Below, one piece after another: positions 22,173 through 49,762 of a stretch of DNA of 51,192 nt (the first letter of the stretch is position 1; each line of letters opens with the position of its first letter). Source of the DNA: an uncultured Burkholderiales bacterium (GTDB lineage: Bacteria; Actinomycetota; Acidimicrobiia; IMCC26256; JAOSJL01); assembly GCA_964424125.1 (NCBI GenBank), contig CAYRHS010000001.1:1-51192 (forward strand), in the 5' to 3' direction. The translations under genes were made by a program, and so were the position numbers. The notes below the pieces were generated by a model. That model saw only the letters and a program-made list of their open reading frames with translations, made no database searches and was not told where the DNA came from.

Positions 22173-22189
22173 TGTGAACCGCCGCTAGC
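22173..22189 (+). promoter_or_regulatory. operator-like motif copy 1 (TGTGAACCGCCGCTAGC)
   Basis: Lies 81 nt upstream of the SDR start. Together with its flank, 21/25 identical to copy 2 (GGTGTGAAC...TAGCCTCGGG). Confidence 0.45.
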
Positions 22190-22269
22190 CTCGGGCCGGC
22201 TCCGCCGGCGACCGAACCGGGCGCCGAGCCACGTTCGCCACACACCGAGAGACCACCAGAGGTATCCAC

Positions 22270-23229
22270 ATGGGCACGCTCGACGGACGGATCATCGTCA
22301 TCACCGGCGCGGGACGCGGCATCGGTCGCGAGCACGCGCTCCTCTTCGCCTCCGAAGGCGCCAAGGTCGTGGTGAACGACCTCGGCGGCGACGTCGACGG
22401 CACCGGCGAGGACCGGGCCCCGGCCCAACTGGTCGTCGACGAGATCAAGGAGATGGGCGGCGAGGCCGTCGCGAACGTCGACAACGTCGCCGACTGGGAG
22501 GGCGGGCAGCGCCTCATCAACACCGCCATCGAGACGTTCGGCGACCTGCACGCGGTCGTGAACAACGCCGGCATCCTCCGCGACCGGGTGCTCGTGAACA
22601 TGACCGAGGCCGAGTGGGACGCGATCATGACCGTCCACCTCAAGGGGCACTTCGTGCCGACGCGCTTCGCCGCGGCCTACTGGCGCGAGCAGTCGAAGGC
22701 CGGCAAGGAGGTGAAGGCAAACGTCGTCAACACGTCGTCGGGCGCGGGTCTGCTCAACAACTTCGGCCAGACCAACTACGCCGCTGCCAAAGCGGGGATC
22801 GCGACCTTCACGATGGTCGCGGCGATGGAGCTCGGCCGCTACGGCGTGCGCGTGAACGCGATCGCGCCGCTCGCCCGCACGCGCCTGACACTCCAGACCC
22901 CGGGCATGGAGACGGTGGTCGCCGAACCCGAGGACGCGGGAACCTTCGACCTCTGGGACCCGGCCAACATCTCCCCCATCGTCGGGTACCTCTGCACGGA
23001 GAACCTGCCCTTCACCGGGGGCGTGTTCCACGCCGGCGGCAGCGAGATGGGGCTCTTCCGGGGCTGGGCGATGGAGGAAGTCATCAGCGCGCCCGCGGGT
23101 CGCTGGACGATCGCCCAGCTCGAGAAGGAGGCACCGAAGCTGGTCGACGCCGACAAGGAGCTCGCGTCGTCGGGCACGACTCTGGCTGAGTTCACGCCCG
23201 AGTTCCTCAAGCGCCACGGCGCGCTCTAG
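22270..23229 (+). CDS. SDR family oxidoreductase with C-terminal extension
   Basis: 319 aa. TGAGRGIG, NNAG, YAAAKAG (Y-x3-K). Extra ~70-aa tail. Confidence 0.85.
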   Translation: MGTLDGRIIVITGAGRGIGREHALLFASEGAKVVVNDLGGDVDGTGEDRAPAQLVVDEIKEMGGEAVANVDNVADWEGGQRLINTAIETFGDLHAVVNNAGILRDRVLVNMTEAEWDAIMTVHLKGHFVPTRFAAAYWREQSKAGKEVKANVVNTSSGAGLLNNFGQTNYAAAKAGIATFTMVAAMELGRYGVRVNAIAPLARTRLTLQTPGMETVVAEPEDAGTFDLWDPANISPIVGYLCTENLPFTGGVFHAGGSEMGLFRGWAMEEVISAPAGRWTIAQLEKEAPKLVDADKELASSGTTLAEFTPEFLKRHGAL

Positions 23230-23253
23230 CTCCTCGATCCGGCTTCGCTCGGG

Positions 23254-23270
23254 TGTGAACGAGCGTTAGC
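23254..23270 (+). promoter_or_regulatory. operator-like motif copy 2 (TGTGAACGAGCGTTAGC)
   Basis: Ends 10 nt before the P450 GTG start, immediately upstream of the GGGAGG SD. Confidence 0.5.
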
Positions 23271-23280
23271 CTCGGGAGGC

Positions 23281-24492
23281 GTGCTCGCGCTCGACCTCCT
23301 GAACTCGGCTCATCTCGACGACCCGTACCCCACGTACCAGCGTCTGCGGGCCGCGGGGCGGGTCGTGGCCCTCGACGACCGGCGCTTCGTGGTCACCAGC
23401 TACGGCACGGCGGCCGAGGTCCTTCGTGATCACGAGACGTTCTCGTCTCGTCGATCCATCGCGGTGGCGGAAGAGTTCTTCCGCCGTGAGGGCGGCACCG
23501 ACATGGCGGGCGCGATGGGTGCGCCGACCAAGCGCTACCGCACGATCATCTCCTCCGATCCGCCGGACCACACCCGGATCCGGAGCGCGGCGCGCGCGCC
23601 GTTCCTGCCGAGCGCCGTCGCGGCGCAGGAGCCGAAGGTGCGCGCCGTGGCCGAGGCATGCGTCGCCGATCTCCTCGACGCCGCATCCCGCGGCGACGCG
23701 GACTTCGTGCGCGACGTGGCGTTCCCGCTCCCGGTCATCGTGATCGCCGATCTGCTCGGCGCTCCACGCGACCGTCGCGAAGACTTCAAGCGCTGGTCGG
23801 ACAATCTGGCGGCCGCGGGCGCCTCGGTCGAGAACGCGAGCGCCGCGGTGGGCGCCGAGATGTTCGAGTTCTTCGATCATCTCGTCGCTGATCGCCGACA
23901 ACAGCCGCGCGACGACATCGTGAGCTCCCTCCTGGAGCAGGCGGGCGACGATCTCGACCCGATCGAGATCGTCGTCTTCTGTCAGATTCTGTTGATCGCC
24001 GGCAACGAGACGACCACGAACCTCCTCGGCAACTGGTGCTCGTGCGTCCTCCTCGAACGTCCGGACCTCGCAACGAGGCTCGGCAACGCTCCGGGGCGCA
24101 TCCCGCCGACCATCGAGGAGGCGTTGCGCTTCGAATCCCCGTTCCAGGGCACCATGCGCACTGCGACCCGTGACGCGGACGTCGCCGGGACACGCATCCC
24201 GTCGGGATCGTCTGTTCTGGTGCTCCTCGGAGCCGCGAACCGGGACCCTGCCGTGTTCCCCGAGGCCGACTCCTTCGTCGCCGACCGCGAACCGAACGAG
24301 CACCTCGCGTTCGGATCAGGGATCCACTCCTGCCTCGGTGCGTGGCTCGCTCGCCTCGAAGCGCGCGTCCTCGCCGAGACCGTGACTCGCCTCCTCCGCT
24401 CCGTGGTTCTCCGAGGGTCTCCGGAACGAAGCCGATCTGGACTTCTGCGAGGATTCCGCACCCTCCCCGTCCACGCCGAGCCGGCCGCGTGA
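23281..24492 (+). CDS. cytochrome P450
   Basis: 403 aa. AGNETT I-helix, ExxR (EEALRF), heme loop FGSGIHSCLG. Confidence 0.9.
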   Translation: MLALDLLNSAHLDDPYPTYQRLRAAGRVVALDDRRFVVTSYGTAAEVLRDHETFSSRRSIAVAEEFFRREGGTDMAGAMGAPTKRYRTIISSDPPDHTRIRSAARAPFLPSAVAAQEPKVRAVAEACVADLLDAASRGDADFVRDVAFPLPVIVIADLLGAPRDRREDFKRWSDNLAAAGASVENASAAVGAEMFEFFDHLVADRRQQPRDDIVSSLLEQAGDDLDPIEIVVFCQILLIAGNETTTNLLGNWCSCVLLERPDLATRLGNAPGRIPPTIEEALRFESPFQGTMRTATRDADVAGTRIPSGSSVLVLLGAANRDPAVFPEADSFVADREPNEHLAFGSGIHSCLGAWLARLEARVLAETVTRLLRSVVLRGSPERSRSGLLRGFRTLPVHAEPAA

Positions 24493-25685
24493 ACCCCATC
24501 GACCTTCTCGACCCGCAGCATCTCGAGGATCCCTACCGCACCTACGCCCGGCTGCGGTCGGACGGGCCGGTCGTGGATCTGGGCGACGAACGGTTCCTCG
24601 TCGCCGACCACGCGACGGTCACCGCCGTGTTGCGTGATCACGAGACGTACTCGTCCGAGTCGACCGGAGCCGACCGCGACTTCTTCGTGCCGGAGAAGCC
24701 TGCGGCGACGGTCTCGCTCGGCTCGGGCGAGGATTTCCGACTGCTCATCCGCTCCGATCCACCCGACCACACGAGGCTCCGCCAGCTCGTGCGAGGTCCG
24801 TTCACGCCGTCGGCCATCGCGAGGTTGGAGCCACGTGTTCGGGCCATCGCGCACGCCTGCGTCGACGACCTGATGACCCAAGACCTCGACGGGAACGCCG
24901 ATTTCGTCCGCCAGGTGGCCTTCCCACTTCCGGTCATCGTCATCGCCGAGCTGCTCGGAATCCCTCCGGAGCGCCGCTCCGACTTCAAGCGCTGGTCCGA
25001 CAACCTTGCGCTGTCGGTGGCCTCGACCAACGACCCGAGTCTCCAGGTCGCGGCCGAGATGTTCGAGTTCTTCGATCAACTCGTGGCCGAGCGACGCGGC
25101 CGCCCTGGGGAGGATCTCGTGAGCCGTCTCCTGACGGACGCGAGCGGCGAGCTCACCACGGTCGAGATCGTCGTCTTCTGCGAGCTGCTCCTCATCGCAG
25201 GCAACGAAACGACGACGAACCTCCTGGGGAGCTGGGTACAAGCCTGCTTCGACCATCCCGAAGCCGCCGCCGCGCTCCGGGCCGATCGCGATCTCGCGCC
25301 CTCGGCCATCGAGGAGGCGTTGCGCTACGACTCGCCGGTGCAGGGGACTCTCCGGCGCGCAACCCGCGACACAGAGTTGGGTGAGATGCCGATCTCCAGG
25401 GGCGCCCGCCTGCTCGTTCTCCTCGGGGCTGCGAACCGCGACCCGGCCGTGTTCCCGGAGCCCGACCGCTTCGATCCGCGGCGGAATCCAACCGAGCATG
25501 TCGCCTTCGGCTCGGGTATCCACTTCTGCCTCGGTGCCGGGCTCTCCCGGCTCGAGGCCCGCGTGCTCGCCGACGTCGCAAGAACGAAGGTCCGGAGCCT
25601 TCGGCCGAGCGGACCGCCCACGCGCACCGGCTCCGCGTTGGTGCGTGGCTTCCAGTCGATGCCTGTAAGGGTGGAACCGGCGTGA
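24489..25685 (+). CDS. cytochrome P450 (tandem paralog)
   Basis: GTG 24489 overlaps the TGA of the first P450 (GTGA). AGNETT, EEALRY, FGSGIHFCLG. N-termini of the two are clearly homologous. Confidence 0.9.
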   Translation: MNPIDLLDPQHLEDPYRTYARLRSDGPVVDLGDERFLVADHATVTAVLRDHETYSSESTGADRDFFVPEKPAATVSLGSGEDFRLLIRSDPPDHTRLRQLVRGPFTPSAIARLEPRVRAIAHACVDDLMTQDLDGNADFVRQVAFPLPVIVIAELLGIPPERRSDFKRWSDNLALSVASTNDPSLQVAAEMFEFFDQLVAERRGRPGEDLVSRLLTDASGELTTVEIVVFCELLLIAGNETTTNLLGSWVQACFDHPEAAAALRADRDLAPSAIEEALRYDSPVQGTLRRATRDTELGEMPISRGARLLVLLGAANRDPAVFPEPDRFDPRRNPTEHVAFGSGIHFCLGAGLSRLEARVLADVARTKVRSLRPSGPPTRTGSALVRGFQSMPVRVEPA

Positions 25686-25698: not shown

Positions 25699-27060
25699 TC
25701 AATCCGGAAGCAGGACCCCCGGGTTGAGGATCCCGGCCGGGTCGAGCGCGTCCTTCACCGCCCGGAACACCGCGAGCTCCTCGGCCGAACGGTTCTCGGG
25801 GAGCAGCTCCCGTTTGGCGATGCCGATGCCGTGTTCGGCCGAGATGCTTCCCCCCATGGCGGCCGCCAGCTCGAGCACGCTCTCGTCGACGCGGTCGTCG
25901 TGCGCGGCGGGACCGACCACGTTCACGTGGAGGTTCCCGTCGCCGAGATGCCCGAAGAGCACACAGCGCGCCTCCGGCACGATTTCTGCGACGACCGCGC
26001 GGACCTGCTGTTCGAAGTCGACCAGCATCGAAGCCGGGAGCGTGACGTCGAGCTTGTGGGGGATGCCGAGCGTCGCGATCGCCTCGGTGTGCAGGTCGCG
26101 CAGCCGCCAGAGCCGATCACGCCCTGCCGGCTCCGTGGCGACGGCACTCGCGGTCACGACGTCGGTGAGCCCGGACAGCGCGTCGGTGAGCTCCTCGGAA
26201 GGGTCACGGGGCCCGGCAGCCTCCGCGAGCACGAGCACCGCGGGAAGCGGGTCGAACGGGGTCGGGACCTCGAAGGTCTCGGCGACGAGGCGCACACCGT
26301 CGGCAAACATCACCTCGAGCGCTTCCAGCGACGGCGTCGTCCGGTGGAGACGAGCGGCGACGTCGACCGCGGCCGCAAAGGAGTCGCATCCCAGCAGCGC
26401 GGTGACGCGGTGCCTCGGGCGGGGAATCAAGCGGAGCCGTACCGCGGTCACGACCGCGAGCGTCCCTTCGCTCCCCGTGAGCAGCCCGGGGAGGTCGTAC
26501 CCGGTGTTGTCCTTCGTCAGCCCCCGCAGGGACCGCACGACCCGCCCGTCCGCGAGCACTGCCTCCACCCCGACGACCTGGTGGCGCATCGGTCCGTACC
26601 GGATGACGTGCATGCCACCGGCGTTGGTCGCCACCATCCCGCCGATCGTCGCCGAGTCACGTGCCGAGAGGTCGACACCCACATCGAGACCATGTGGGCG
26701 CACGTGCTCGCGCACCGCGGCGAGCGTCGCACCCGCCCCGACGGTCACCTGGTCGGCCGCGGTGTCGACGGGGCCGACCTCGTCGAGCTCGCGCAGGCTC
26801 AGGAGGACCTCGCCGGCTCGGGGCACCGAGCCGCCGACCAACCCCGTGTTCCCTCCCTGGGGAACGACGGACACGCGGCGCTCCGAGCACCACCGCAGCG
26901 TCGCCGCGACCTCGTCGGGCGAACGCGGCCGGACGACGGCCGGCGTCGTCCCCTCGTAGCGACCCGTCCAGTCGACGACATACGAACGCGTCACCTCCGG
27001 ATCGACGAGCACTCGGCCCGCACCGAGCGCTCTGGTGAGCCCTGCAGCGATCTCGGTCAT
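25699..27060 (-). CDS. FAD-binding oxidase/dehydrogenase (GlcD / FAD_binding_4 type)
   Basis: Trimmed to ATG 27060. VVPQGGNTGLVGGSVP FAD-binding block. C-terminal SISAEHGIGIAKR. Confidence 0.85.
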   Translation of the reverse strand: MTEIAAGLTRALGAGRVLVDPEVTRSYVVDWTGRYEGTTPAVVRPRSPDEVAATLRWCSERRVSVVPQGGNTGLVGGSVPRAGEVLLSLRELDEVGPVDTAADQVTVGAGATLAAVREHVRPHGLDVGVDLSARDSATIGGMVATNAGGMHVIRYGPMRHQVVGVEAVLADGRVVRSLRGLTKDNTGYDLPGLLTGSEGTLAVVTAVRLRLIPRPRHRVTALLGCDSFAAAVDVAARLHRTTPSLEALEVMFADGVRLVAETFEVPTPFDPLPAVLVLAEAAGPRDPSEELTDALSGLTDVVTASAVATEPAGRDRLWRLRDLHTEAIATLGIPHKLDVTLPASMLVDFEQQVRAVVAEIVPEARCVLFGHLGDGNLHVNVVGPAAHDDRVDESVLELAAAMGGSISAEHGIGIAKRELLPENRSAEELAVFRAVKDALDPAGILNPGVLLPD

Positions 27061-27217
27061 CTCCGTCACGCTCTGATCGTCGCGCGGAGCGCCCCGACGG
27101 CCCGTCTCCGATACGCTGGCGCAGGTCCGCTCCGAACGCCCCTCCCCGCCGCGCGGCGGTCGGCTCGCCCGGCCGCGGGACAACCCGCTGTGGCCGTTCG
27201 GACTCCTGCCCGCAGTC

Positions 27218-28501
27218 GTGCTCGTCCTCGTGAACTTCATCGACGGGGCCGAGACCTTCGTCCTCCCGGGCACGTTGTCCCTGCTCCAGGACGACTTCGG
27301 CTTCAGCGACACCTGGGCCGGGAGCCTCGCCACGGCGGCCGCCATCGCGGGGCTGGTCGTCGTGATCCCCGCCGGCTACCTCGCCGACCACTTCCGGCGC
27401 ACCCGGGTGCTGGGGATCGTCGTGACCTTGTGGTCCGCGCTCAGCATCCTCTCCGCCGGCGCGCTCGCCTTCTGGATGTTCTTCGCCGCCCGGTTCGGCA
27501 TGGGCGCCGCCAACAGCCTCGACAACCCGCCGGCCTCGTCGCTGCTCGCGGACTACTACCCGCCCATCTCCCGCGGCCGGATCTTCGCCGCCCAGCGCGT
27601 TGCCTGGTCCCTGGGCGTGGGCGTGGGCGTCGCCGTCGGGGGTGCGGTGGGCGAGGCGCTGGGCTGGCGGTCCGCCTACCTCGTGTTCGCGGGCCCGGGC
27701 CTCTGCGTCGCGCTCCTCGCCTGGCTGCTCCCCGAACCGGTCCGCGGGCAGTTCGACCACGTCCGACAGTCCCCGTCGACCGAGGCCGCGCACAGAAGCG
27801 AGGAGCTGCTCGTCGAGATGGAGACCGAAGCCGCGCCGCCCACCGGCATCCGGGAGTTCCTCGGCGAGGTCGGGGCCCTAGCCCGGATCCCCACCGCCCG
27901 TCACTTCTACATCGGGCTGGCCATCACGTTCGCGGGCTTCAACGGTCTGGCCTTCTGGGCCCCGAGCTTCTTCGAGCGCGAGCACGGACTCAGCGAGGCG
28001 GCCGCCGGCGCCATCACCGGAGGGCTCGTGCTCTTCGTCGCGCTCGGGGGCGCGCTGCTCGGCGGTGCCCTCGGGGACCGGGCCGCCGACTCCGCGAGCG
28101 GAGGACGGGCTCGCATCGTCGGGGTCACCCTCGCGGTCGGGTCGGCGGTCGCGGGCGTGGGGTTCCTCGTCGACCCGCTCGGTCCGATGCTGGTCCTGTT
28201 CGCGATCGGCGCGTTCGTGATCTCGATGGCGATCCCCAACTTCGCGGCCGTGATCGCCGAGGTGATCCCCGCGCGCCGGCGCGGCGCGGGGTTCTCGATC
28301 TACTACTTCCTGACGCTGCTCGGCGGCGCGCTCGGCCCACTGCTCATCGGCGCCGTCTCCGATCTGACGGGCTCGCTCCAGATCGCGATGGCCGTCGCGT
28401 TCCTCCCCGCAATCCCCGGCGGCTGGTACGTCTATTCGGCCCATGGCACCCTCGAGCAGGATGCGCAGGCCGCGCTCGGGTTCCCGGGGCCTCCCGGCTG
28501 A
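27218..28501 (+). CDS. MFS transporter
   Basis: 427 aa with about 12 hydrophobic segments. The start is uncertain (see finding). Confidence 0.8.
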   Translation: MLVLVNFIDGAETFVLPGTLSLLQDDFGFSDTWAGSLATAAAIAGLVVVIPAGYLADHFRRTRVLGIVVTLWSALSILSAGALAFWMFFAARFGMGAANSLDNPPASSLLADYYPPISRGRIFAAQRVAWSLGVGVGVAVGGAVGEALGWRSAYLVFAGPGLCVALLAWLLPEPVRGQFDHVRQSPSTEAAHRSEELLVEMETEAAPPTGIREFLGEVGALARIPTARHFYIGLAITFAGFNGLAFWAPSFFEREHGLSEAAAGAITGGLVLFVALGGALLGGALGDRAADSASGGRARIVGVTLAVGSAVAGVGFLVDPLGPMLVLFAIGAFVISMAIPNFAAVIAEVIPARRRGAGFSIYYFLTLLGGALGPLLIGAVSDLTGSLQIAMAVAFLPAIPGGWYVYSAHGTLEQDAQAALGFPGPPG

Positions 28502-28587: not shown

Positions 28588-29460
28588 CTATCGGGACGAC
28601 TCGGGGTGGAGGGTCGAAGCCAGCCTCGCAGGAAGCTCGGCGTGCTTGGATCCGGTCCACACCGGCGTTCGATTCTCCAACATTGCCGTCACGGCCTCGG
28701 CCGTGTCGGGTTGCGATCCAGCCCACGGGATCATGCTCGCCTCCTCCGCCATTGCACGATCCCGGTCTGGCATCTCGAGGAACCGGTAGAGGAGGTGCTT
28801 GGTCGCTGCGACCGCGTGCGGCGCCGTGTTCAGCGCGATGTCTCTTGCGCAGTCCAGTGCCGCGGGAAGCACCTCGTCAGCCGGCAGGGCTTCGGAGACC
28901 AGGCCGATCTCTGCCGCCTCACGGCCGCTGAACCATCGTCCCGAGATCAGCAGCTGCGCAGCTCTCGTCATGCCCACGAGCCTGGGCAGGAGCCAGGTCA
29001 CGTTCCCCTCCGGAGTCATACCGACACGGGTGAAAGGAAAACGGAGCTTGGCATCCGCGGCCGCGAAGCGGATGTCGGTGAGGAGGGCGAGCGTGAGGCC
29101 GCCCCCCACCGCGGCGCCATTGATCGCCGCGACCACCGGCGTGCGCAGCTTCCAAAGGGCGAACGACTCGAGGAACGAGTCGCGAACCTGTGCGCCGCCG
29201 TCGTCGGTCACGCCGTAGTCGTCAAGGCTCTGCGCACCGAACGCGTCGGCTCCTTCCGAGATGTCTGCGCCGGCACAAAATGCCGTTCCCGCGCCCGTGA
29301 GCACGATTGCCCGCACGAGATCGTCAGCTTCGAGGCCCCAAAGAGCCTTCGGCAGGTCCCGGCTCATCCGCAAGTCGAACGCGTTGCGCGCATCAGGACG
29401 ATTCAGGGTGACGGTCGCCACACCGTCGTCGACGTGAACCAGGACGGTGTCGGATGTCAT
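28588..29460 (-). CDS. enoyl-CoA hydratase/isomerase family protein (long-tail subtype)
   Basis: Trimmed to ATG 29460. VATVTLNRPDARNAF, TGAGTAFCAGAD, INGAAVGGG. The tail W.GSKH.ELP is shared with 41323-42183. Confidence 0.85.
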   Translation of the reverse strand: MTSDTVLVHVDDGVATVTLNRPDARNAFDLRMSRDLPKALWGLEADDLVRAIVLTGAGTAFCAGADISEGADAFGAQSLDDYGVTDDGGAQVRDSFLESFALWKLRTPVVAAINGAAVGGGLTLALLTDIRFAAADAKLRFPFTRVGMTPEGNVTWLLPRLVGMTRAAQLLISGRWFSGREAAEIGLVSEALPADEVLPAALDCARDIALNTAPHAVAATKHLLYRFLEMPDRDRAMAEEASMIPWAGSQPDTAEAVTAMLENRTPVWTGSKHAELPARLASTLHPESSR

Positions 29461-29535
29461 GGCTCCTCCGGTTCTTGACTCGTAGTTCGCCCCGAGCCAG
29501 CACTGCATGTTGCCCTCATCGAGGGCCGCGTCGTC

Positions 29536-30333
29536 TCAGCGACCCTTGAACACAGGCTCGCGTTTCTCCGCGAACGCTCTCGCCGCCTCTTGGTGGTCCT
29601 CAGTAGCGAACAGAGAGCCGTGGGCCTTGTGCACGAAGAGCGCGAGCTCCTCGAGTTCCCCGTAGGTCGCCCCGATGCTTCTCCGGAGAGCCTCCTTGGT
29701 GTAGGTGACACCGAGAGGAGGATTCGCAGCAATCTTCTCGGCGAGCCTCCGCGCTGCGGGCAGCAGGTCATCGGGGGGAAGCACTCGTGAAACCAGTCCG
29801 ATTCGCTCGGCCTCCGCGGCATCGATCGACTCTCCGGTCAGTAGCAGTTCCGCCGCCTTGGCCGGTCCGAGCATTCGGGGCAGACGCCAGAACGTGCTCA
29901 CGCCACCGATCACACCGAACTGGATGTACTTCGCGCTCACCTTGACGCGGTTCGTGGCGATCAGCATGTCGCACCAGCAAGCCAGCTCGACACCCAAACC
30001 CAGGCAGTATCCGTCGAGAGCACCGATGAGGGGCTTGTCGAAGTCGACCATGAGATTGCGATCCAGCCTCGGGCGGAGCCTGCGGTAGTTCGCCATGAGC
30101 TCCTCGAATCGGTCTCCTGCCCAGGCTTGCTCGATGTCGTCACCGCCGCAGAAGTTTCCGCCGGCGCCAGTCAGGATCACGCAACGCACCGTGGCGTCGC
30201 TTCCTGCCGCGTCGAAGGCTGCCATGAGCTCGTCGTTCATCTCGTAGTTGATCGCGTTCAGCTTCTCCGGCCGATTCAGGGTGATCGTCGCGATGTGGTC
30301 GGACACCTCGTACCCGACTGTGGTGGGCCTCAT
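29536..30333 (-). CDS. enoyl-CoA hydratase/isomerase family protein
   Basis: 265 aa. IATITLNRPEKLNAI, TGAGGNFCGGDD. C-terminal EDHQEAARAFAEKREPVF. Confidence 0.9.
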   Translation of the reverse strand: MRPTTVGYEVSDHIATITLNRPEKLNAINYEMNDELMAAFDAAGSDATVRCVILTGAGGNFCGGDDIEQAWAGDRFEELMANYRRLRPRLDRNLMVDFDKPLIGALDGYCLGLGVELACWCDMLIATNRVKVSAKYIQFGVIGGVSTFWRLPRMLGPAKAAELLLTGESIDAAEAERIGLVSRVLPPDDLLPAARRLAEKIAANPPLGVTYTKEALRRSIGATYGELEELALFVHKAHGSLFATEDHQEAARAFAEKREPVFKGR

Positions 30334-30649
30334 GAACCTCTACCTCCTCGGCCTGACGGTGGGGCTCCCCATGGATCCCGCACAGTGTCAACCTCGTGAT
30401 GTCTTCGCCGCCTCGACTTTGGGGCGCCCATCGCCCGACCCCACATCTGCGACCGACGTCACCTCGCGACCGCGAGAGGCGCCGCCTCGGTGGCGTCCAC
30501 CGGCGGGACGGAACAGCGGTGCGGATATGCGGTAGGTCCCCGACGAGCTCGACGAATCGAACAGATGGACAAGCCCCGATGTCGAGCCTGTCGAGCTCGT
30601 TGCGGGTTGCGAGGACTGCCGGCGCTTTGACCTCAGAAGTTCGCCGTAA

Positions 30650-33519: not shown

Positions 33520-33522
33520 CGT

Positions 33523-41321: not shown

Positions 41322-41322
41322 C

Positions 41323-42183
41323 TCAGCCTCCGGAGGACAGCGGGTCGCGCAGCGCCTCGGGGAGGTCGACGTGCTTGCTCCCCTGCCACTTCGGGTCTCG
41401 CTTCTCGAGGTACGACATCACACCCTCGACCGCGTCGGGCTGCTCACCGACCCACCAGGTGATCTTCGTCTCTCGCTGCATCGCGGCGAGCCGATCGGTC
41501 TGGGTGAGGTTGTCGTACACGAGTCGCTTGACGAGCGCGGTCGCACCCGGCGCGGTGTGGACCGCGATCTCGCGCGCGAACTCCTGCGCCGCGCGCAGGA
41601 CGTCCTCACGCGGCAGCGACCGGGCGACGAGCCCGATGTCGGCGGCCTCGTACCCGCTGATCGTCCGGGCGCCGAGCATGAGCTCCAACGCCCGCGTCAC
41701 TCCGACCAGCCGCGGGAGGATCCACGTCGAGTTCGCCTCCGGGATGATCCCCCGCCGGGTGAACACGAAGGAGAGCTTGGCGTCCTCGGCCGCGTAGCAG
41801 ACGTCGAAGAGCAAGCTCATGGTCATCCCCACGCCGACCGCGGCGCCGTTGATGGCACCGATGACGGGCGTGCTCAGGTTCCAGAGCGCCCATTTCTCGG
41901 CGATCTGGTCCGAGTCGACGCCGAGCTCCTGGTCGTGGGCCTCGTGCGTCTCGCGCCCGAACGCGTCGCCACCACCCGAGAGGTCGAAGCCCGCGCAGAA
42001 CGCCTTGCCCGCGCCGGTGACGACGATGGCGCGAACCGCCTCGTCGGCATCGAGCTTCGCGAAGGCGTCCGAGAGCTCACCGTCCATCGTGAAGTTGATG
42101 GCGTTGCGCTGCTCGGGCCGGTTGAGGGTGATGGTGGCGACACCGACGTCGTCGACCTCGCAGAGGATGGTCTCGTAAGCCAC
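41323..42183 (-). CDS. enoyl-CoA hydratase/isomerase family protein (long-tail subtype)
   Basis: 286 aa. Paralog of 28588-29460 (VATITLNRPEQRNAI, INGAAVGVG, tail WQGSKHVDLP). Confidence 0.9.
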   Translation of the reverse strand: MAYETILCEVDDVGVATITLNRPEQRNAINFTMDGELSDAFAKLDADEAVRAIVVTGAGKAFCAGFDLSGGGDAFGRETHEAHDQELGVDSDQIAEKWALWNLSTPVIGAINGAAVGVGMTMSLLFDVCYAAEDAKLSFVFTRRGIIPEANSTWILPRLVGVTRALELMLGARTISGYEAADIGLVARSLPREDVLRAAQEFAREIAVHTAPGATALVKRLVYDNLTQTDRLAAMQRETKITWWVGEQPDAVEGVMSYLEKRDPKWQGSKHVDLPEALRDPLSSGG

Positions 42184-42202
42184 GTGCTGCTCCTACCTCG
42201 TT

Positions 42203-43042
42203 CTATTCTCCTGTGAATTCGGGCTCGCGTCCCGCCATGAACGCGCTGACGGCTTCGGCGTGGTCCTTGGTCTCGAACAGTCCCACAAGCGTCCGCGAGA
42301 TGTACTCGCCCAGGCCGGCCAGGTCCGCGTACGTCATGAGCGTTCCCTTGGCGAGCCCGGCCTTGATCGCGCGCAGGGCCTCGGGCGGCTTCGACGCGAT
42401 CTTCGCCGCGAGCGCCTGCGCTTCGTCGACGAGCTCACCGGCGTCTACGACACGAGAGACGAGTCCGATCCGCTCCGCCTCCGTTGCGTCCACCAGGTCG
42501 CCCGTGAACAAGAGCTCCGCCGCCTTGGACGGACCCACAAGCTGCGGAAGGCGACGCAGGCTCGCGAAGTCGGCGACGAGGTTGAAGTTCACGTACAGCC
42601 CCCCGAAACGCGCGTACTGGTTCGCGAGCCGGATGTCGGCGACGAGCGCGAGATCCATGCCGACGCCCACAGCGACACCGTTGACCGCGGCGACGAGCGG
42701 CTTCTCGAACTCGAGCACCCGCAACGTCTCCGGCGTGGGACGGGGGATCGCCTTCTTCAGCGGCGCGAGCCCGCGCTGGAGGTTCTCCTCCTGCCACGCC
42801 TCGTTGACGTCATCCCCCGCGCAGAACGCCTTCCCGGCGCCGGTAAGAACGGCGCAGCGGACGTCGTCGCTCGCTTCCGCCTTTCGCAGAGCCGCGTCGA
42901 GCTGCTCTCCGACCTCCAGCGTCAGCGCGTTCATGGCGTCGGGCCGGTTCAGGGTGATCGTGGCCACCTGCCCGTCGACCTCGTAGCACACGAGCTCCGC
43001 GCCCACCGCTCCTCCTCGTCTCCAGATGACCGCGCCGGTCAC
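42203..43042 (-). CDS. enoyl-CoA hydratase/isomerase family protein
   Basis: 279 aa. GTG 43042. Paralog of 29536-30333 (VATITLNRPDAMNAL, TGAGKAFCAGDD, KDHAEAVSAFMAGREPEF). Confidence 0.85.
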   Translation of the reverse strand: MTGAVIWRRGGAVGAELVCYEVDGQVATITLNRPDAMNALTLEVGEQLDAALRKAEASDDVRCAVLTGAGKAFCAGDDVNEAWQEENLQRGLAPLKKAIPRPTPETLRVLEFEKPLVAAVNGVAVGVGMDLALVADIRLANQYARFGGLYVNFNLVADFASLRRLPQLVGPSKAAELLFTGDLVDATEAERIGLVSRVVDAGELVDEAQALAAKIASKPPEALRAIKAGLAKGTLMTYADLAGLGEYISRTLVGLFETKDHAEAVSAFMAGREPEFTGE

Positions 43043-43064
43043 CGTCGTCGTTGGACCAGAGGAC

Positions 43065-43080
43065 GTTAACTCAGGTTAAC
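43065..43080. promoter_or_regulatory. AT-rich palindrome GTTAAC-TCAG-GTTAAC
   Basis: Occupies the centre of the 42-bp gap between divergent start codons 43042 (-) and 43085 (+). Confidence 0.35.
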
Positions 43081-43084
43081 TACC

Positions 43085-44233
43085 GTGCGCATGGGACCAC
43101 TGCACGGGGTGCGCGTCATCGAGATCACCGGACTCGGACCGGGGCCGCTCGCGGGCATGCTGCTCGCCGACCTCGGAGCCGAGGTGCTGCGCATCGACCG
43201 GGGCGCGGCGGTCGAGACCGGCAACGCGTTTCCCTCCCGGACCGACCTCCTCGCGCGCGGGCGTCGATCGGTCGCGGTGGACCTCAAGCACCCCGAGGGG
43301 CGCGAGACGGTGCTGCGGCTGGCCGAGGCGGCCGATGCGCTCTACGAGGGCTTCCGGCCGGGTGTCACCGAGCGCCTCGGGATCGGACCCGACGACTGCT
43401 GGGCGCGCAACCCGCGCCTCGTCTACGGGCGCATGACGGGATGGGGCCAGGACGGTCCGCTCGCGCAGACCGCCGGCCACGACATCGACTACATCGCGCT
43501 GGCCGGCGCTTTGTGGCCGATCGGGCGAGGGGGCGAGAAGCCGGTCCCGCCACTGAACCTCGTCGGCGACTTCGGTGGCGGTGGCGTGTTCCTGGCGCTC
43601 GGGATCGTCGCCGCCCTCATCGAAGCGCGCGAGTCGGGCCAGGGCCAGGTCGTCGACGCGGCGATGGTGGACGGCGCATCCGCCCTGATGACCTTTTTCC
43701 ACGCGGCGCGGGAGTCGGACATGTGGTCGGACGAACGGGGCGTCAACCTGCTCGACACGGGTGCACCGTTCTACGAGGTCTACGAGACTGCCGACGGCAA
43801 GTGGGTGGCCGTGGGAGCCATCGAACCCCAGTTCTGGGCCGAGCTGGTGGAGCGCCTGGGCCTCGAAGGCGACCTCCCGAGCCAGTACGACGCATCGTCG
43901 TGGCCGGCCATGAAGGAGCGACTCGCCGACGTGTTCCGCCGCAAGACTCGTGACGAGTGGTGCGAGCTGTTCGAGCGCACCGATGCGTGCCTGGCCCCGG
44001 TTCTTTCGCTCGCGGAGGCACCGAACCATCCGCACGCACAGGCCCGGAGGTCCTTCGTCGAGGTCGATGGCATCGTCCAGCCCGCCCCCGCGCCACGTTT
44101 CAGCCGCACGCCGTCGGAGGTCCAGGGCCCGCCGCCGCATCCCGGCGCCGACACGGACGAGGCCCTCGCGACCTGGGGGTTCGCCCTGGACGAGATTTCC
44201 CGGCTCCGCGACGTCGGCGCCGTCGCCGGATAG
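43085..44233 (+). CDS. family III CoA-transferase (CaiB/BaiF), alpha-methylacyl-CoA racemase-like
   Basis: 382 aa. GVRVIEITGLGPGPLAGMLLADLGAEVLRIDR N-terminus. Start is GTG 43085 or ATG 43091. Confidence 0.85.
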   Translation: MRMGPLHGVRVIEITGLGPGPLAGMLLADLGAEVLRIDRGAAVETGNAFPSRTDLLARGRRSVAVDLKHPEGRETVLRLAEAADALYEGFRPGVTERLGIGPDDCWARNPRLVYGRMTGWGQDGPLAQTAGHDIDYIALAGALWPIGRGGEKPVPPLNLVGDFGGGGVFLALGIVAALIEARESGQGQVVDAAMVDGASALMTFFHAARESDMWSDERGVNLLDTGAPFYEVYETADGKWVAVGAIEPQFWAELVERLGLEGDLPSQYDASSWPAMKERLADVFRRKTRDEWCELFERTDACLAPVLSLAEAPNHPHAQARRSFVEVDGIVQPAPAPRFSRTPSEVQGPPPHPGADTDEALATWGFALDEISRLRDVGAVAG

Positions 44234-44292
44234 CACGGCCCGTCGAGAGCCATAATCCCCGCGCAGCCAATCCCGAGGGAGGCAACAGCACG

Positions 44293-45849
44293 ATGTGGCC
44301 CGGACCGCACGCCGCCGCGAATCCCGACAAGCCGGCCGTGATCATGGCCGGCAGCGGCGAGACCGTGACCTACCGCGAGCTCGATGATCGGTCGAACCAG
44401 CTTGCCCAGCTCTTCCACGACGTTGGACTGCGCTTCGGTGACCACGTCGCGTTCGTCCTGGAGAACTCGTCCCGGTTCCACGAGGTGTGCTGGGCCGCGC
44501 AGCGCAGCGGGCTCTACTACACGGCGATCAACTGGCACTTCAACGCCGAAGAGCTCGCCTACGTCGTCGACGACTGCGATGCCCGGGCGCTGATCGTCTC
44601 GAACGAGTTCCGCGACGTGGCCGCCGAGCTGACGCCCATGCTCTCCGACCGCGTCGAGACGCGGCTCATCCTGGGCGGGTCGCTCGACGGCTGGGAGTCC
44701 TACGAGGAACTGCTGGCCCGCTACCCGACCGAGCCGATCGCCGAGGAGCTCGAGGGGCACGCGATGTTGTACTCGTCGGGAACGACGGGTCGACCGAAGG
44801 GCGTGAAGTACCGCCTGAAGCGGCAGGCGATGGGTCACACGCCGATCATGGTCGAGGCGTTCCGTGCGTTGTATGCGTTCGACGAGGACAGCATCTATCT
44901 CTCGCCCGCGCCGCTGTACCACTCGGCTCCGCTCCAGTTCACGATGCTGGTGCTCCGCCTGGGCGGCACCGTGGTGGTGATGGAGCGCTTCGATCCCGAA
45001 GCCGCGCTCGTCGCGATCGAGCGCTACGGGGTCACGCACAGCCAGTGGGTGCCCACGATGTTCGTCCGCCTGTTGAAGCTCCCGGAGTCCGAGCGCGCCG
45101 CGCGCGATCTCTCCTCGCATCGCGTGGCCATCCATGCAGCTGCGCCGTGCCCGGCTCAGGTGAAGGAGCAGATGATCGAGTGGTGGGGGCCGATCATCCA
45201 CGAGTACTACGCGGCCACCGAGGGCATCGGGGCCACGATGATCAACTCCGAGGAGTGGCTCGAGCACCGGGGCTCGGTGGGCAAGTCGTTGCTGTCCCCG
45301 GTGCACGTCCTCGACGACGCGGGGCACGAGCTCCCTCCGGGTGAGGTCGGGGTCGTGTGGTTCGAGGGTGGTGGCAGCCCCGTGGCCTTCGAGTACCACA
45401 AGGACGCCGAGAAGACCAAGGGCGCGCACAACGAGCACGGGTGGGCCACGACGTTCGACATGGGTTACCTGGACGACGACGGGTACCTGTACCTCACCGA
45501 TCGCAAGAACTTCATGGTCGTCTCGGGCGGCGTGAACATCTACCCCCAGGAGGCCGAGAACCTGCTCGTCACGCACCCCAAGGTCGCCGACGTCGCCGTC
45601 TTCGGCGTCCCGAACGAGGAGATGGGCGAAGAGGTGAAGGCGGTGGTCCAGTCCACGGACATGGCGGACGCGGGCCCCGAGCTCGAGCGCGAGCTCATCG
45701 CGTTCTGCAAGGAGCACCTCGCGCACTACAAGTGCCCGCGCTCGGTCGACTTCGAGGTCGAGCTTCCGCGCCACGACACGGGCAAGCTCTACAAGCGCCT
45801 GTTGCGCGACCGCTACTGGGGCGAGGACGCCTCGAGGATCGTCGGATGA
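44293..45849 (+). CDS. acyl-CoA synthetase (AMP-forming), close paralog of 30750-32303
   Basis: Trimmed to ATG 44293. Same MWPGP...DKPAVIMAGSG start. About 75% identity by eye over the full length. Confidence 0.9.
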   Translation: MWPGPHAAANPDKPAVIMAGSGETVTYRELDDRSNQLAQLFHDVGLRFGDHVAFVLENSSRFHEVCWAAQRSGLYYTAINWHFNAEELAYVVDDCDARALIVSNEFRDVAAELTPMLSDRVETRLILGGSLDGWESYEELLARYPTEPIAEELEGHAMLYSSGTTGRPKGVKYRLKRQAMGHTPIMVEAFRALYAFDEDSIYLSPAPLYHSAPLQFTMLVLRLGGTVVVMERFDPEAALVAIERYGVTHSQWVPTMFVRLLKLPESERAARDLSSHRVAIHAAAPCPAQVKEQMIEWWGPIIHEYYAATEGIGATMINSEEWLEHRGSVGKSLLSPVHVLDDAGHELPPGEVGVVWFEGGGSPVAFEYHKDAEKTKGAHNEHGWATTFDMGYLDDDGYLYLTDRKNFMVVSGGVNIYPQEAENLLVTHPKVADVAVFGVPNEEMGEEVKAVVQSTDMADAGPELERELIAFCKEHLAHYKCPRSVDFEVELPRHDTGKLYKRLLRDRYWGEDASRIVG

Positions 45850-46673
45850 GCGCCGGTGCGGACGCCCGCGCGGCCGTCGAGGAGGTTGCCCATGACCTCG
45901 TCGACGAGGAGCAGGTGCTCGACGACCTGGTGGCAGGGATCGACCCGGCCGCCTGGTCGAAGCCGACGCCCGCGCAGGGCTGGGACGTGCGCGCCACCAT
46001 CGGCCACCTCGTCGCCTCGGAGGAGCTGGCCTCCCTGGCCGCAACCGACGAGACGGCGTTCCGGACCCGGTTGCAGGAGGCCCTCGAGAACCTGGAGGAG
46101 TTCAGCAGCGGGCTGCCCGGCGACCTGGCCAAGGTCTCGCCCCCCGACCTGCTGGAGCGCTGGCGCGAGCTGCGGACCCGCACGATCGACGCGGTCCTGG
46201 CCACGGGACCCGACGAGCGCATCCCCTGGGTCGGGCCGTCGATGCGCGGGCGGGCCTTCCTCACCGCGCGGCTGATGGAGACGTGGGCCCACGGGCGCGA
46301 CGTCTTCGACGCGCTGGGCGCGATCCAGCCAGCCACGGGCCGACTCCGCCACATCGCCCATCTCGGTGTCATCACCCGTTCGTTCGCCTACGCCAACCGG
46401 GGCCTGGAGGCACCGGACGCGGAGGTCTGCGTGGAGCTGGATCCGCCCGACGGCGGCGAACCCTGGGTGTGGGGCCCGGCGAACACCGCCGACCGCGTCA
46501 CGGGCGCAGCCGAGGACTTCTGTCTCGTCGTCACGCAGCGTCGAAATGTCGCCGACACCGACCTCCACGTTGAGGGACCGGCCGCCGGCGACTGGATGGA
46601 CCACGCGCAGTGCTTCGCCGGGCCGCCCACCGAACCGCCGCCCCGGGGCCGGGCGTCGGGCTTCCCGAGGTGA
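45846..46673 (+). CDS. DinB/MDMPI-like metal-binding protein (TIGR03084-like)
   Basis: ATGA overlap with the upstream stop. W..PTPAQGWDVRATIGHL N-terminal motif. Confidence 0.7.
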   Translation: MSAGADARAAVEEVAHDLVDEEQVLDDLVAGIDPAAWSKPTPAQGWDVRATIGHLVASEELASLAATDETAFRTRLQEALENLEEFSSGLPGDLAKVSPPDLLERWRELRTRTIDAVLATGPDERIPWVGPSMRGRAFLTARLMETWAHGRDVFDALGAIQPATGRLRHIAHLGVITRSFAYANRGLEAPDAEVCVELDPPDGGEPWVWGPANTADRVTGAAEDFCLVVTQRRNVADTDLHVEGPAAGDWMDHAQCFAGPPTEPPPRGRASGFPR

Positions 46674-47548: not shown

Positions 47549-47613
47549 CGCCGGGAGACGACCGCCGCGCGCGACGCGGACCGCGGCTTCGACGCCCGAG
47601 ACCTGTCGAGCGA

Positions 47614-48471
47614 TCAGGGGAGGCCGGCGCCTCGAACGTCGACGTCGACCGCCGCCACCTGGGCGTCGCGACGCTCGCTCACCAAGGCCGACTGGGTGCT
47701 CTCCGCCAGCATCAGATAGAGCGTTCGCCGGCCGGGGCCGCCGAGCATGCATGCGAAGCAGCCGCGTCCGGTCTCGACGCGGTCCGCGACCTCGCCGCCC
47801 TCGTGCACCCGGAGACACGCGCGACCGAGCGCGTCCGCGAACCACACCGCGCCGTCGGCGTCGAGACAGATCCCGTCGGGGAAGGCACCGGGCGTCTCGG
47901 CCCACGTCCGCCGGGCCGACAGCGTCCCGTCGGCGTCGATCGTGAACGCCGTGAGGCGCTGTGCCATCGTCTCGGCGACGATGAGCGTCTCGCCGTCGGG
48001 CGTGATCACGCTCCCGTTGGGGAACCCGAGGCCGTCGGCGACCACGTTGACCGCACCGTCAGGCGCCACGAGTGTCAGGGCCGCGTTCACGGGCTCGAGC
48101 TCGGCGGCTTCGAGGTCGAAGCCGAAGTTGCCGACGTAGGCGTCGCCCCGCTCGCTCACGACCATGTCGTTGCAGTGCCAGGTGGCGATCCCGGAGAGGT
48201 CGGCGTGCTCGACGAGCGTCTTGTCGCGCTCGCGCCACCGCAGCAGGCGGCGATCGATCATCGACACGACGAGCAGGTCTCCGTCGGGGAGCCACCCCAG
48301 GCCCGACGGCTGGCCTGGCACCTCGCAGACGGTCTCGAGCCTGCCGCCGTCGGCGTCACAACGCAGGACGCGGTGCGAATAGAAGTCCGAGACCCAGAGC
48401 TGGTCGCCGTGCCAGCGCGGACTCTCGACGAAGGTCAGCCCGTCGACGAGGACCCGGACGTCCCGGCCCAC
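47614..48471 (-). CDS. SMP-30/gluconolactonase/LRE-like beta-propeller protein
   Basis: Start trimmed to GTG 48471, 4 nt after the upstream stop. ESPRWH, FPNGSVITPDG and PDGICLDADG repeats. Confidence 0.75.
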   Translation of the reverse strand: MGRDVRVLVDGLTFVESPRWHGDQLWVSDFYSHRVLRCDADGGRLETVCEVPGQPSGLGWLPDGDLLVVSMIDRRLLRWRERDKTLVEHADLSGIATWHCNDMVVSERGDAYVGNFGFDLEAAELEPVNAALTLVAPDGAVNVVADGLGFPNGSVITPDGETLIVAETMAQRLTAFTIDADGTLSARRTWAETPGAFPDGICLDADGAVWFADALGRACLRVHEGGEVADRVETGRGCFACMLGGPGRRTLYLMLAESTQSALVSERRDAQVAAVDVDVRGAGLP

Positions 48472-48475
48472 TCGC

Positions 48476-49717
48476 TCAGCCGAGGCCGGCCGGCTGTACG
48501 CATTGCTCGCCCGTGAAGGCGTCGAAGAACGTGTCGGTGACGGGCTGCGCGACACCGTCCTCGTCGAGCTGGGTCGTGATCAGGCATGGGTTGAAGATCC
48601 GCGGCAGCCCACCGACTCCGCCTTCGGTGAAGTTGATCGGCGGAGTGAGGTCTGCCGGATTCAGCGCCGTCGCCTGGTTCAGCGCCGCCAACATGGCGGG
48701 CGCGGTCGCCTCGGTGCCGTTGTTGAGCAGCTCGACCACCGACATCACCGCCGCGTAGCCGTTGGAACGAAAGCCCCCGGTTTCGTCGAAGCCGGCCGCT
48801 TCCATGTCCTTGGCGAACTGCTGCGTTGCCTTGGTGTCGAGCTGCTGGGGCACGAAGATCGAGTTCAGGAAGATGCCCTGGGCGTCGGGACCGAGGGCGT
48901 CGATCACGTCGGTGATCTCGCTCGCGGTCATGGCGATCCGTACGTCGGGTGCGGTCTGGCGGAGCTCGACGACGAAGTTGGTGGCGTCCACGCCGGGCAG
49001 GCCGACGATGACGCCGTCCGGGTCGTTCTGGAGCACGGCCTGGACGAAGGGGGCCATGTCGGCGGTGTTCTCGGGCACCGCGACGTCACCGATCGTCTCG
49101 ATGCCGAAGGGCTCGAGGCCCTGGTTGGCGAAGTCGGCGATCACCGACGCCGCCGCGAGGTCGACGCGTGCGACGGCGATCCGCTCGGCGCCGTCGGTGG
49201 CGAGCGCGTTGGCGAGCCCGGCCGAGGCCGAGACGATGCCCCCACTGATGGGGAATGAGACGTCCGAGGTGAAGTCACCGACGCCGGAGGGGATGTCGCC
49301 GACGACCGGGATCTGGTTCTCCTCGAAGAGCGGGTAGAACTGGTCCTGCTGGACCGAGAGCATTCCCGCGATCGCGACCACGCCCTCGTCCACGGCCTGG
49401 CGGCCGCATTCCGCCGCGGTGTTCGGGTCGTCCATGGTGTCGCAGTCCACGAGCTCGAGCGGGCTGCCGTTCAACACCCCGCCGTCACGGTTCACCGCCT
49501 CGACGGCCGCTTGCGCCCCCTCGAGGAGGTCGGGTACGGCGATGCCTGCGCTGAACTCGCCGAGGGTCATGATCTTGACCGGCGGACCGGTCAACTCCGG
49601 GCCCGTCGTGGTCGTGGTGTCCTCGGCGCTGTCGTTACCGCCCGAGCTGCAGGCCGCCGCGCCCAGCACGAACACGAACACGACCGCAAGCGATCGGATC
49701 CAGCGTCGCGACATCAT
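48476..49717 (-). CDS. LivK-type solute-binding lipoprotein
   Basis: 413 aa. Lipobox LGAAACSSG. Conserved CD..DDPNTAAECG and C-terminal Cys pair shared with 36585-37817. Confidence 0.85.
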   Translation of the reverse strand: MMSRRWIRSLAVVFVFVLGAAACSSGGNDSAEDTTTTTGPELTGPPVKIMTLGEFSAGIAVPDLLEGAQAAVEAVNRDGGVLNGSPLELVDCDTMDDPNTAAECGRQAVDEGVVAIAGMLSVQQDQFYPLFEENQIPVVGDIPSGVGDFTSDVSFPISGGIVSASAGLANALATDGAERIAVARVDLAAASVIADFANQGLEPFGIETIGDVAVPENTADMAPFVQAVLQNDPDGVIVGLPGVDATNFVVELRQTAPDVRIAMTASEITDVIDALGPDAQGIFLNSIFVPQQLDTKATQQFAKDMEAAGFDETGGFRSNGYAAVMSVVELLNNGTEATAPAMLAALNQATALNPADLTPPINFTEGGVGGLPRIFNPCLITTQLDEDGVAQPVTDTFFDAFTGEQCVQPAGLG

Positions 49718-49745
49718 GGCGGTCCCCTGAACGATGGGCGGCCAA

Positions 49746-49762
49746 GTTAGCGCTCGTTCACA
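49746..49762 (-). promoter_or_regulatory. operator-like motif copy 5 (TGTGAACGAGCGCTAAC on the minus strand)
   Basis: Lies 29 nt upstream of the binding-protein start and 28 nt downstream of the ATPase stop. Confidence 0.5.

Follow-up and report, generated by a model that had tools for sequence, protein, structure and literature searches.

The described systems closest to the one reported here belong to the TetR family. KstR, the TetR regulator of actinobacterial cholesterol catabolism, controls numerous dispersed catabolic operons, which often lie at a distance from the regulator gene. BkaR/Fad35R (Rv2506, MSMEG_4718), a mycobacterial repressor of branched-chain keto-acid and acyl-CoA genes, is an autoregulated dimer whose operator is the 16-bp palindrome GTTA(N)T-N4-A(N)TAAC (PMC3920632). 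Mce3R (Rv1963c), a lipid- and cholesterol-related repressor of Mycobacterium tuberculosis, is a double TetR with the fold of a pseudo-dimer, and its 25-bp binding sites are not palindromic (PMC11667970). Here, we describe a recurrent 16-bp imperfect palindrome, GT(G/T)AAC-N4-GYTAAC, in a 51,192-nt stretch of acidimicrobial DNA (contig CAYRHS010000001.1, positions 1 to 51,192; the window in what follows). With a probability of about 0.8, we take this motif to be the operator of a homodimeric single-domain TetR-type repressor, which would be encoded past the right edge of the window and would control the units that the sites precede.

The motif resembles the BkaR operator in its 16-bp length, 6-bp arms, 4-bp centre, and outer GT..A and T.AC bases. 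The half-sites differ, reading GTTAnT in BkaR and GT(G/T)AAC here, with a G at arm position 3 and C7/G12 inside. BkaR acts on bkd, acc, fadD35, and scoA, whereas the sites of the window precede P450s, enoyl-CoA hydratase (ECH) pairs, an HMGS-like/DUF35-thiolase unit, and a Liv-type ABC system. The host belongs to the Acidimicrobiia and not to the Mycobacteriales, and the proteins are distantly similar. Membership in the BkaR/Fad35R regulon was therefore rejected: length and spacing match, but consensus and gene content do not. The proposed arrangement of one TetR and scattered operons is that of KstR, and the operator shares with KstR an AAC...GTT core and the overlap with promoters. In the KstR motif TnnAACnnGTTnnA, however, AAC and GTT are 2 bp apart, while the distance is 4 bp in all sites here; the KstR2 operator is AnCAAGnnCTTGnT. 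The initial annotation had stated that the spacing is not that of KstR or KstR2, and this was correct. Both regulators were rejected on the spacing and on the score of the KstR model (27–29 bits, cut-off 280). PsrA-type (AAACG-NN-CGTTT) and PaaR-type (CNAACGNNCGTTNG) operators have the AACG-NN-CGTT core and its spacing in common with our sites. They control fatty-acid or aromatic-acid CoA pathways, as described for the Shewanella lipid-catabolism motif (PMC2532739) and Thermus PaaR (PMC6651687), but their flanking bases differ and their hosts belong to unrelated phyla. The PsrA model gave 25–27 bits (cut-off 300), a likeness at the level of the TetR N-terminal domain only.

Five copies of the motif had been listed in the initial annotation, and all five were recovered with the same coordinates, strands, and sequences (Table 1). 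Copies 1–5 lie 80, 10, 316, 39, and 28 nt from the downstream start codon; the gaps of 81, 10, 40, and 29 nt reported for copies 1, 2, 4, and 5 agree with these values when the counting convention is allowed for. The long block common to copies 1 and 2 (GGTGTGAAC...TAGCCTCGGG) and the AACGATCGTT core of copy 3 are also present, and the arms of copy 4, TGTGAAC and GTTTACA, are near-palindromic. Two statements needed correction. The motif was said to have the same orientation in four cases, but all five reported copies face the downstream gene. The five regulated gaps stand, but their total rises to at least six through the new site between the ECH-ECH-AMP-ligase operon and the CoA-transferase genes. 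The heptamer TGTGAAC occurs six times in the window, five times within the reported copies. The remaining occurrence (8047–8053, minus strand) is the lone half-site announced at 8046–8053. It exists, but it overlaps the GTG start of the gene at 6823–8052, has no right half, and scores 9.4 bits, and it is best read as a chance match and not as a half-site of the motif.

The sites are far in excess of expectation. Allowing up to three mismatches, the exact 17-mer gave three matches in the window, compared with 0.07 expected. The degenerate 16-mer GTKAAC-N4-RYTNRC, which was defined after relatives had revealed the variable positions, gave six distinct sites compared with 0.15 expected, and none of 100 shuffles attained six. 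All six sites are intergenic, in the ~12% of the window that is non-coding; its GC content is ~70%. A weight matrix was built from 11 sites, the five window copies among them, and these five scored at least 23 bits. As a background, 1.66 Mb of unrelated high-GC sequence was scanned with the same matrix, and no match reached 20 bits (maximum 19.6); this background consisted of GTDB representative loci collected with the FAD-oxidase as query and JGI metagenome loci collected with the SDR. The best match to the FAD-oxidase in the GTDB representative genomes was 58% identical (Acidimicrobiia metagenome-assembled genomes, MAGs), and 0 of 78 loci were syntenic or motif-bearing. Likewise, none of the 80 JGI loci (at most 76% identical) showed synteny and none had the motif. 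These counts confirm the recurrence of the motif. One near-motif, CGTGAACGGGTGGTAGC (19814–19830, minus strand, 16 bits), lies inside the beta-lactamase-family gene at 19057–20553. It is the sole moderately scoring match within coding sequence of the window and is probably due to chance.

Syntenic relatives were found by protein searches with P450-1 and the HMGS-like/DUF35 protein, followed by exact look-ups. Lineage B comprises loci L160 and L176/L177 (GCA_027494115.1; HMGS 77% identical), lineage C comprises L161–L165 and L170–L172 (GCA_041394025.1, an Acidimicrobiia MAG; HMGS 76% identical), and lineage D comprises L166–L168 (Microtrichaceae 'ATN2' MAGs; HMGS 69% identical). L170 and L162 belong to one 1.6-Mb contig. 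The other orthologs in these lineages show 67–86% protein identity, and the SGL lactonase is 71% identical to its L170 ortholog. Footprinting in relatives, a check proposed in the initial annotation, revealed homologous sites at orthologous promoters in three Acidimicrobiia lineages, with proteins 69–86% identical. At the HMGS/DUF35 promoter, copy 4 corresponds to TGTGAACCGTCGTTTAC in lineage B (L160) and to CGTGAACCGGCGTTTAC in lineage C (L161/L162). At the SDR promoter, copy 1 corresponds to TGCGAACGACCACTAAC in lineage C (L161/L162, SDR 86% identical). The P450 promoter has its site 9–10 nt ahead of the start, and copy 2 corresponds there to CGTAAACGCCCGTTAAC in lineage B. In L160, the site before the orthologous P450 occupies 4702–4718, 9 nt from the start, and the copy 2 17-mer was found unchanged in L170 and L176. 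The ECH/ligase gap carries TAGTTAACCTGAGTTAAC in the window, the same block in lineage B, and the same block with a CTGG centre in lineage C. This block, TAGTTAACCTGrGTTAAC, is kept in the orthologous gap of L160, L162/L170, and L176, where both the ECH-ECH-AMP-ligase operon and the site are present.

Further sites in the relatives lie ahead of an amidohydrolase-P450-MFS operon, a peptidase, and a DUF35-thiolase pair, and in acyl-CoA dehydrogenase/luciferase-like gaps (L170, L176). Across ~38 kb of L170 and L162, ~10 sites of at least 17 bits were found, all of them intergenic; most had not been used in building the matrix, and several score 22–29 bits. The distant relative L169 (63% HMGS identity) showed no synteny and no motif. 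Two operator copies ~50–60 bp apart were seen in one divergent gap of L170 (12066–12148) and L176 (11997–12088), flanked by a binding protein or unknown gene on one side and an acyl-CoA dehydrogenase on the other. These paired copies resemble the double operators of BkaR and TetR.

Alignment of 32 sites from all lineages showed conservation at positions 1–7 (TGTGAAC) and 11–17 (CGYTAAC). In most sites, the bases at 2/17, 3/16, 5/14, and 7/12 pair as a palindrome requires; pair 4/15 alone is systematically unequal (G versus A). Conservation extends beyond the palindrome: T is found at position 19 in 25 of the 32 sites. Upstream, in DNA of ~70% GC, 22 sites have T at −10, 20 have G at −8, and 23 have C at −6. 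The −35/−10-like register is fixed with respect to the motif. From this pattern, we infer a promoter layout consisting of a −35 element TTGnCC (−10 to −5), a 17-nt spacer, and a −10 element TAACnT (14–19). The left half-site TGTGAAC falls within the spacer, and the right half-site reads as doubling for the −10 hexamer, which would fix the orientation toward the gene and force A/T at position 15. The asymmetry of the motif would then be explained by the promoter overlap and not by the operator itself. Copy 3 is the clearest example, sitting within TTGACA (30676–30671), a 17-nt spacer, and TAGCTT (30653–30648), and it is directed at the ECH pair. Copy 5 is accompanied by TTGCGC (49773–49768) and TAACTT (49749–49744). 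The −10-like hexamer is TAGCCT in copies 1 (22186–22191) and 2 (23267–23272), and TACACT in copy 4 (34980–34975). Six sites across the lineages, copy 2 included, lie 9–10 nt before the start codon. The start codon is therefore 7–8 nt past the hexamer, as in leaderless transcripts, and the geometry of copy 2 fits a leaderless or near-leaderless internal promoter.

A dimeric repressor of the TetR, GntR, or IclR style had been suggested as the owner of this operator, together with a search for a site ahead of the gene of such a regulator. This search was successful in related lineages, where the site precedes a TetR gene. In lineage D, a 197-aa TetR (TetR_N + TetR_C_24) is encoded inside the cluster, divergent from a 1141-aa fused Liv-type ABC gene. 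The gap between them carries TGTGAACCAAGGCTAAC, and a second site is found 9 nt before an amidase gene downstream of the TetR gene. The amidase of the window (14974–16425) was considered as the ortholog of the motif-controlled amidase beside the L166 TetR, and was rejected at 31% identity. Further lineages were obtained by a homolog search with the lineage D TetR and subsequent look-ups. In all eight related lineages looked up, the cluster contains or adjoins a TetR_N + TetR_C_24 gene that is immediately preceded by a motif copy (L166; L170, repeated by L171/L172; L173; L174; L175; L176/L177; L178), which supports the suggestion and narrows it to TetR. The site of the TetR gene is TGTGAAC(G/C)AAG(A/G)CTAAC or a close variant, at most ~90 bp from the called start codon; in L174 and L176, a motif copy overlaps the called TetR start. 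The TetR gene is divergent from the fused Liv-type ABC gene in four lineages, and a motif copy lies in the gap toward the ABC gene in L166, L170/L171/L172, and L176/L177. A short palindrome of two half-sites suits a homodimer with two helix-turn-helix heads, and a motif-preceded, often divergent regulator gene, also typical of TetR systems, is what these relatives contain.

The window itself ends within the ABC gene. Its ORF at 49790–51192 shows 72% identity to residues 694–1174 of the 1179-aa L170 ABC protein and 64% to that of L166. It follows from the alignment with L170 that ~2.1 kb of the ABC gene is missing from the window, and the TetR gene is predicted ~2.1–2.3 kb beyond coordinate 51192, unless the contig ends there. 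The homolog search with the lineage D TetR returned no TetR from the 76.7-kb source contig.

The candidate regulators have 191–225 aa and one TetR unit each. Their best solved-structure match was Mce3R (9b7y, E = 1e-35), with both halves aligning, and the second best was Rv2506 BkaR/Fad35R (4g12, E = 3.5e-17); KstR2 was a weak structure-database match (E ~1e-6). The helix-turn-helix stretch GI(T/S)GPGVYRH is invariant in ten orthologs that are 46–87% identical overall, and it is close to GVSGPAIYRH of BkaR. BkaR is likewise a single-domain TetR, binding as a dimer and autoregulated from a divergent gap. Mce3R, in contrast, is a ~400-aa tandem, while the candidate is a single domain with a palindromic site. 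Identity with Mce3R was rejected on this size and single unit, each Mce3R half aligning separately. The Mce3R regulon contains a lipid importer, acyl-CoA dehydrogenases, an enoyl-CoA hydratase, and luciferase-like monooxygenases, and the operator sites in the acyl-CoA dehydrogenase/luciferase-like gap of L170/L176 can be likened to these targets. Among the NCBIfam models, the SACE_7040 family (NF050111) scored best, but its 108–142 bits for four regulators fall far short of the 250 bits set as curated cut-off, and membership was rejected. Models for KstR, PsrA, and FadR remained below 35 bits.

According to the mechanism that we propose, a homodimeric single-domain TetR (TetR_N + TetR_C_24) related to Mce3R and BkaR/Fad35R would bind the motif. 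The operator would consist of two inverted GT(G/T)AAC half-sites, 4 bp apart, placed inside housekeeping-type promoters, and the bound dimer would cover the spacer and the −10 element, thereby excluding RNA polymerase. The repressor would be released by an inducer, for which an acyl-CoA or an intermediate from early in the pathway is the probable candidate. KstR and KstR2 have acyl-CoA-type inducers, and the analogy with these two and with Fad35R makes an acyl-CoA the probable choice. For Fad35R, the ligand is palmitoyl-CoA (cited in PMC3920632). Release would switch on the SDR-P450-P450 unit, the ECH pair and possibly the divergent acyl-CoA synthetase, the HMGS-like/DUF35 and thiolase genes, the ECH-ECH-AMP-ligase unit with the divergent CoA-transferase/ligase genes, and the binding protein with the lactonase; these units would be co-regulated. 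The same control would extend to the ABC importer and to the gene of the repressor; the repressor would limit its own synthesis and that of the importer.

Several observations weigh against this reading. Within the window, no TetR gene can be seen; that the source genome has the regulator is extrapolated from relatives. We infer the link between the TetR and the motif from position and homology. The weight matrix scores the same kind of sites as it was built from; the independent loci and the shuffle tests do not rest on it. The 316 nt between copy 3 and the ECH start would be an unusually long leader. Finally, none of the sites was called by a promoter scan with the E. coli consensus, which is too strict for −10 hexamers that match TAnnnT only.

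The motif could also be a genuine operator bound by another factor encoded elsewhere, the adjacent TetR gene being merely a member of the regulon. The association with the TetR is positional only, and both the window and the 17-kb relatives L160/L161 carry sites without a regulator gene nearby. We nevertheless consider this unlikely. Divergent, autoregulated pairs of a TetR and its target are the norm in the family, and this is the arrangement seen here; the site lies directly upstream of the TetR gene in every lineage looked up, the DNA-reading helix of the TetR is invariant, and the characterised homolog BkaR binds a palindrome of equal length and spacing (PMC3920632). Less likely still is a promoter-recognition element, contacted either by an activator beside the −10 element (like PafBC at RecA-NDp) or by a dedicated sigma factor reading TGTGAAC and TAACnT. 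Such an element would account for the fixed register to the −10-like hexamer, the constant orientation, and the left half-site in the spacer. It would also be in line with the ECF sigma/anti-sigma pair ~8 kb from the cluster in L162 and the ECF sigma gene near the cluster in L162/L163. One-sided contact by the polymerase, however, does not explain a palindrome, including the perfect GTTAAC-N4-GTTAAC, and a normal −35 element TTGnCC at 17-nt spacing makes a substitute element unnecessary. The −35 and −10 elements of ECF promoters are ~16–17 nt apart, unlike the 4 bp between GAAC and GTT, and the RecA-NDp motif has a different spacing to the −10 element. KstR, CRP, ECF sigma, and PafBC/RecA-NDp were compared by spacing alone.

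Global regulators with a TGTGA(A) or GAAC half-site, namely Rex, Crp/GlxR, or LexA, are a very improbable source of the sites. TGTGA is the CRP half-site, and GAAC-N4-GTT has the spacing of the actinobacterial SOS box. TGTGAAC is a Rex half-site, the Rex operator (ROP) being TTGTGAA-N4-TTCACAA (PMC5355995), and a literature search for TGTGAAC together with TetR returned Rex papers only. The targets, however, are catabolic and not respiratory or DNA-repair genes. Rex was rejected because the window has 0 matches to its operator at up to three mismatches; the half-sites of our motif are also separated by 2 bp more. LexA was rejected because none of the six sites is among the 68 window matches (up to three mismatches) to TCGAAC-N4-GTTCGA and the targets are catabolic, and CRP was excluded on spacing alone. 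Chance matches, or remnants of small repeated or mobile elements with no regulatory role, are effectively refuted. The slightly longer 25-bp block shared by copies 1 and 2 would suit a repeat, but the shuffle tests and the strictly intergenic placement contradict chance. Beyond the motif, the similarity is confined to promoter-like positions, and the sites are kept at orthologous promoters though the intergenic DNA has otherwise diverged.

The gene map of the window (Table 1) was obtained from Pfam scans of plausible ORFs. These scans found no DNA-binding regulator besides a WhiB7-like protein, which bears out the statement in the initial annotation that whiB7 is the only transcription-factor gene present. 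The WhiB7-like gene (18560–19150, minus strand), with a C-terminal AT-hook RRRGRPPK, lies beside the cluster. At the corresponding cluster edge of lineage C (L162 18832–20471), an ECF sigma factor, a putative anti-sigma protein, and a WhiB gene are found. P450-1 and P450-2 (23281–25685) are 55% identical and represent a paralogous duplication; the start of P450-2 at 24489 was taken from the gene call on L079, and a 73% ortholog in L160 exists for P450-2 only. An exact look-up of the SDR returned a single identical Logan contig of 3 kb. FAD-oxidase and MFS are encoded divergently, and their longest ORFs run into each other for ~128 bp on the 5' side (27218–27345), which means that at least one of the two start codons is over-extended; the motif scan found no operator in this gap. 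In the 316-nt untranslated stretch between copy 3 and the ECH start (30334–30649), neither a credible ORF nor an Rfam family was found. The stretch may represent a long leader or an unannotated RNA, or copy 3 could chiefly serve the acyl-CoA synthetase, a possible second target. A further paralogous duplication in the cluster is that of the ECH-ECH/acyl-CoA-ligase module (28588–32303 and 39729–45849), with one operator apiece. The binding protein and the lactonase downstream of copy 5 form one predicted regulon unit (47614–49717, minus strand). Outside the cluster, a 136-aa stand-alone cyclic-nucleotide-binding-domain protein without a DNA-binding domain is encoded at 13073–13483 (plus strand). 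An 87-nt direct repeat (80% identical; 13490–13576 and 17183–17269) copies the 3' part and flank of a tRNA-Val gene (17226–17300, minus strand). The repeats bracket a ~3.7-kb segment with the amidase and gene fragments; this has the appearance of an element remnant, with tRNA-Val as the integration site.

Table 1. Operator sites and genes of the window.
Feature	Coordinates	Strand	Sequence	Context or basis
Operator copy 1	22173–22189	+	TGTGAACCGCCGCTAGC	Divergent gap between the IMPase pair (−) and the SDR-P450-P450 operon (+)
Operator copy 2	23254–23270	+	TGTGAACGAGCGTTAGC	P450-1 GTG at 23281 begins 10 nt downstream
Operator copy 3	30650–30666	−	TGTGAACGATCGTTAGC	Gap between the ECH pair (−) and the acyl-CoA synthetase (+)
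Operator copy 4	34978–34994	−	TGTGAACGCCTGTTTAC	39 nt ahead of the HMGS-like/DUF35 + thiolase operon
Sixth operator (new here)	43065–43080	.	GTTAACCTGAGTTAAC	Perfect palindrome GTTAAC-CTGA-GTTAAC; divergent gap between the ECH-ECH-AMP-ligase operon (−) and the CoA-transferase, AMP-ligase, and MDMPI genes (+)
Operator copy 5	49746–49762	−	TGTGAACGAGCGCTAAC	28 nt ahead of the solute-binding-protein/SGL-lactonase genes
Two IMPase genes	20555–22089	−		Pfam
SDR, P450-1, P450-2 (predicted regulon unit)	22270–25685	+		Pfam; sites 1 and 2 upstream
FAD-oxidase	25699–27345	−		Pfam
MFS transporter	27218–28501	+		Pfam
Two ECH genes (predicted regulon unit)	28588–30333	−		Pfam; downstream of copy 3
Acyl-CoA synthetase	30750–32303	+		Pfam; divergent from copy 3, 83 nt away
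HMGS-like/DUF35 fusion and SCP-x-type thiolase (predicted regulon unit)	32332–34938	−		Pfam; copy 4 upstream
WS/DGAT	35013–36584	−		Pfam
Binding protein	36585–38216	−		Pfam
Beta-lactamase-family protein	37883–39721	−		Pfam
ECH, ECH, AMP-ligase (predicted regulon unit)	39729–43042	−		Pfam; downstream of the sixth site
CoA-transferase III, AMP-ligase, MDMPI/DinB-like gene	43085–46673	+		Pfam; divergent from the sixth site
SGL lactonase	47614–48555	−		Pfam
Peripla_BP_6 solute-binding protein	48476–49717	−		Pfam
Fused Liv-type ABC permease/ATPase gene, 3' part (467 codons)	49790–51192	−		Truncated by the window edge

A TetR repressor overlapping the −10 element is a textbook mechanism; what is new is a putative regulon for CoA-dependent catabolism in this clade. 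The finding is solid and useful for annotation, while the mechanism itself is unsurprising. An anonymous repeated motif has become a testable regulon in a clade with almost no genetics: the operator is defined, the promoter layout is predicted, a candidate repressor is named, and the window contains at least six predicted target units. The regulon boundaries join the genes into one putative pathway and help in guessing its substrate. Its components are a Liv-type ABC importer, three acyl-CoA ligases, ECH pairs, the HMGS-like/DUF35-thiolase, P450s, a lactonase, and a wax-ester synthase. Another possible use of the operator/repressor pair is as an inducible switch. More tentatively, and in our estimate this is doubtful, the regulator may be a single-domain relative of the unit that was duplicated into Mce3R. 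In that case, the Mce3R/mel2 lipid-catabolic regulon would have its Acidimicrobiia counterpart in this regulon. The pathway under its control would be one not yet described, for the import and degradation of a lipid-, sterol-, or lactone-type substrate by abundant uncultured Acidimicrobiia of soil and wastewater (Microtrichaceae relatives). If this is true, the palindromic operator could show the origin of the asymmetric sites of Mce3R.

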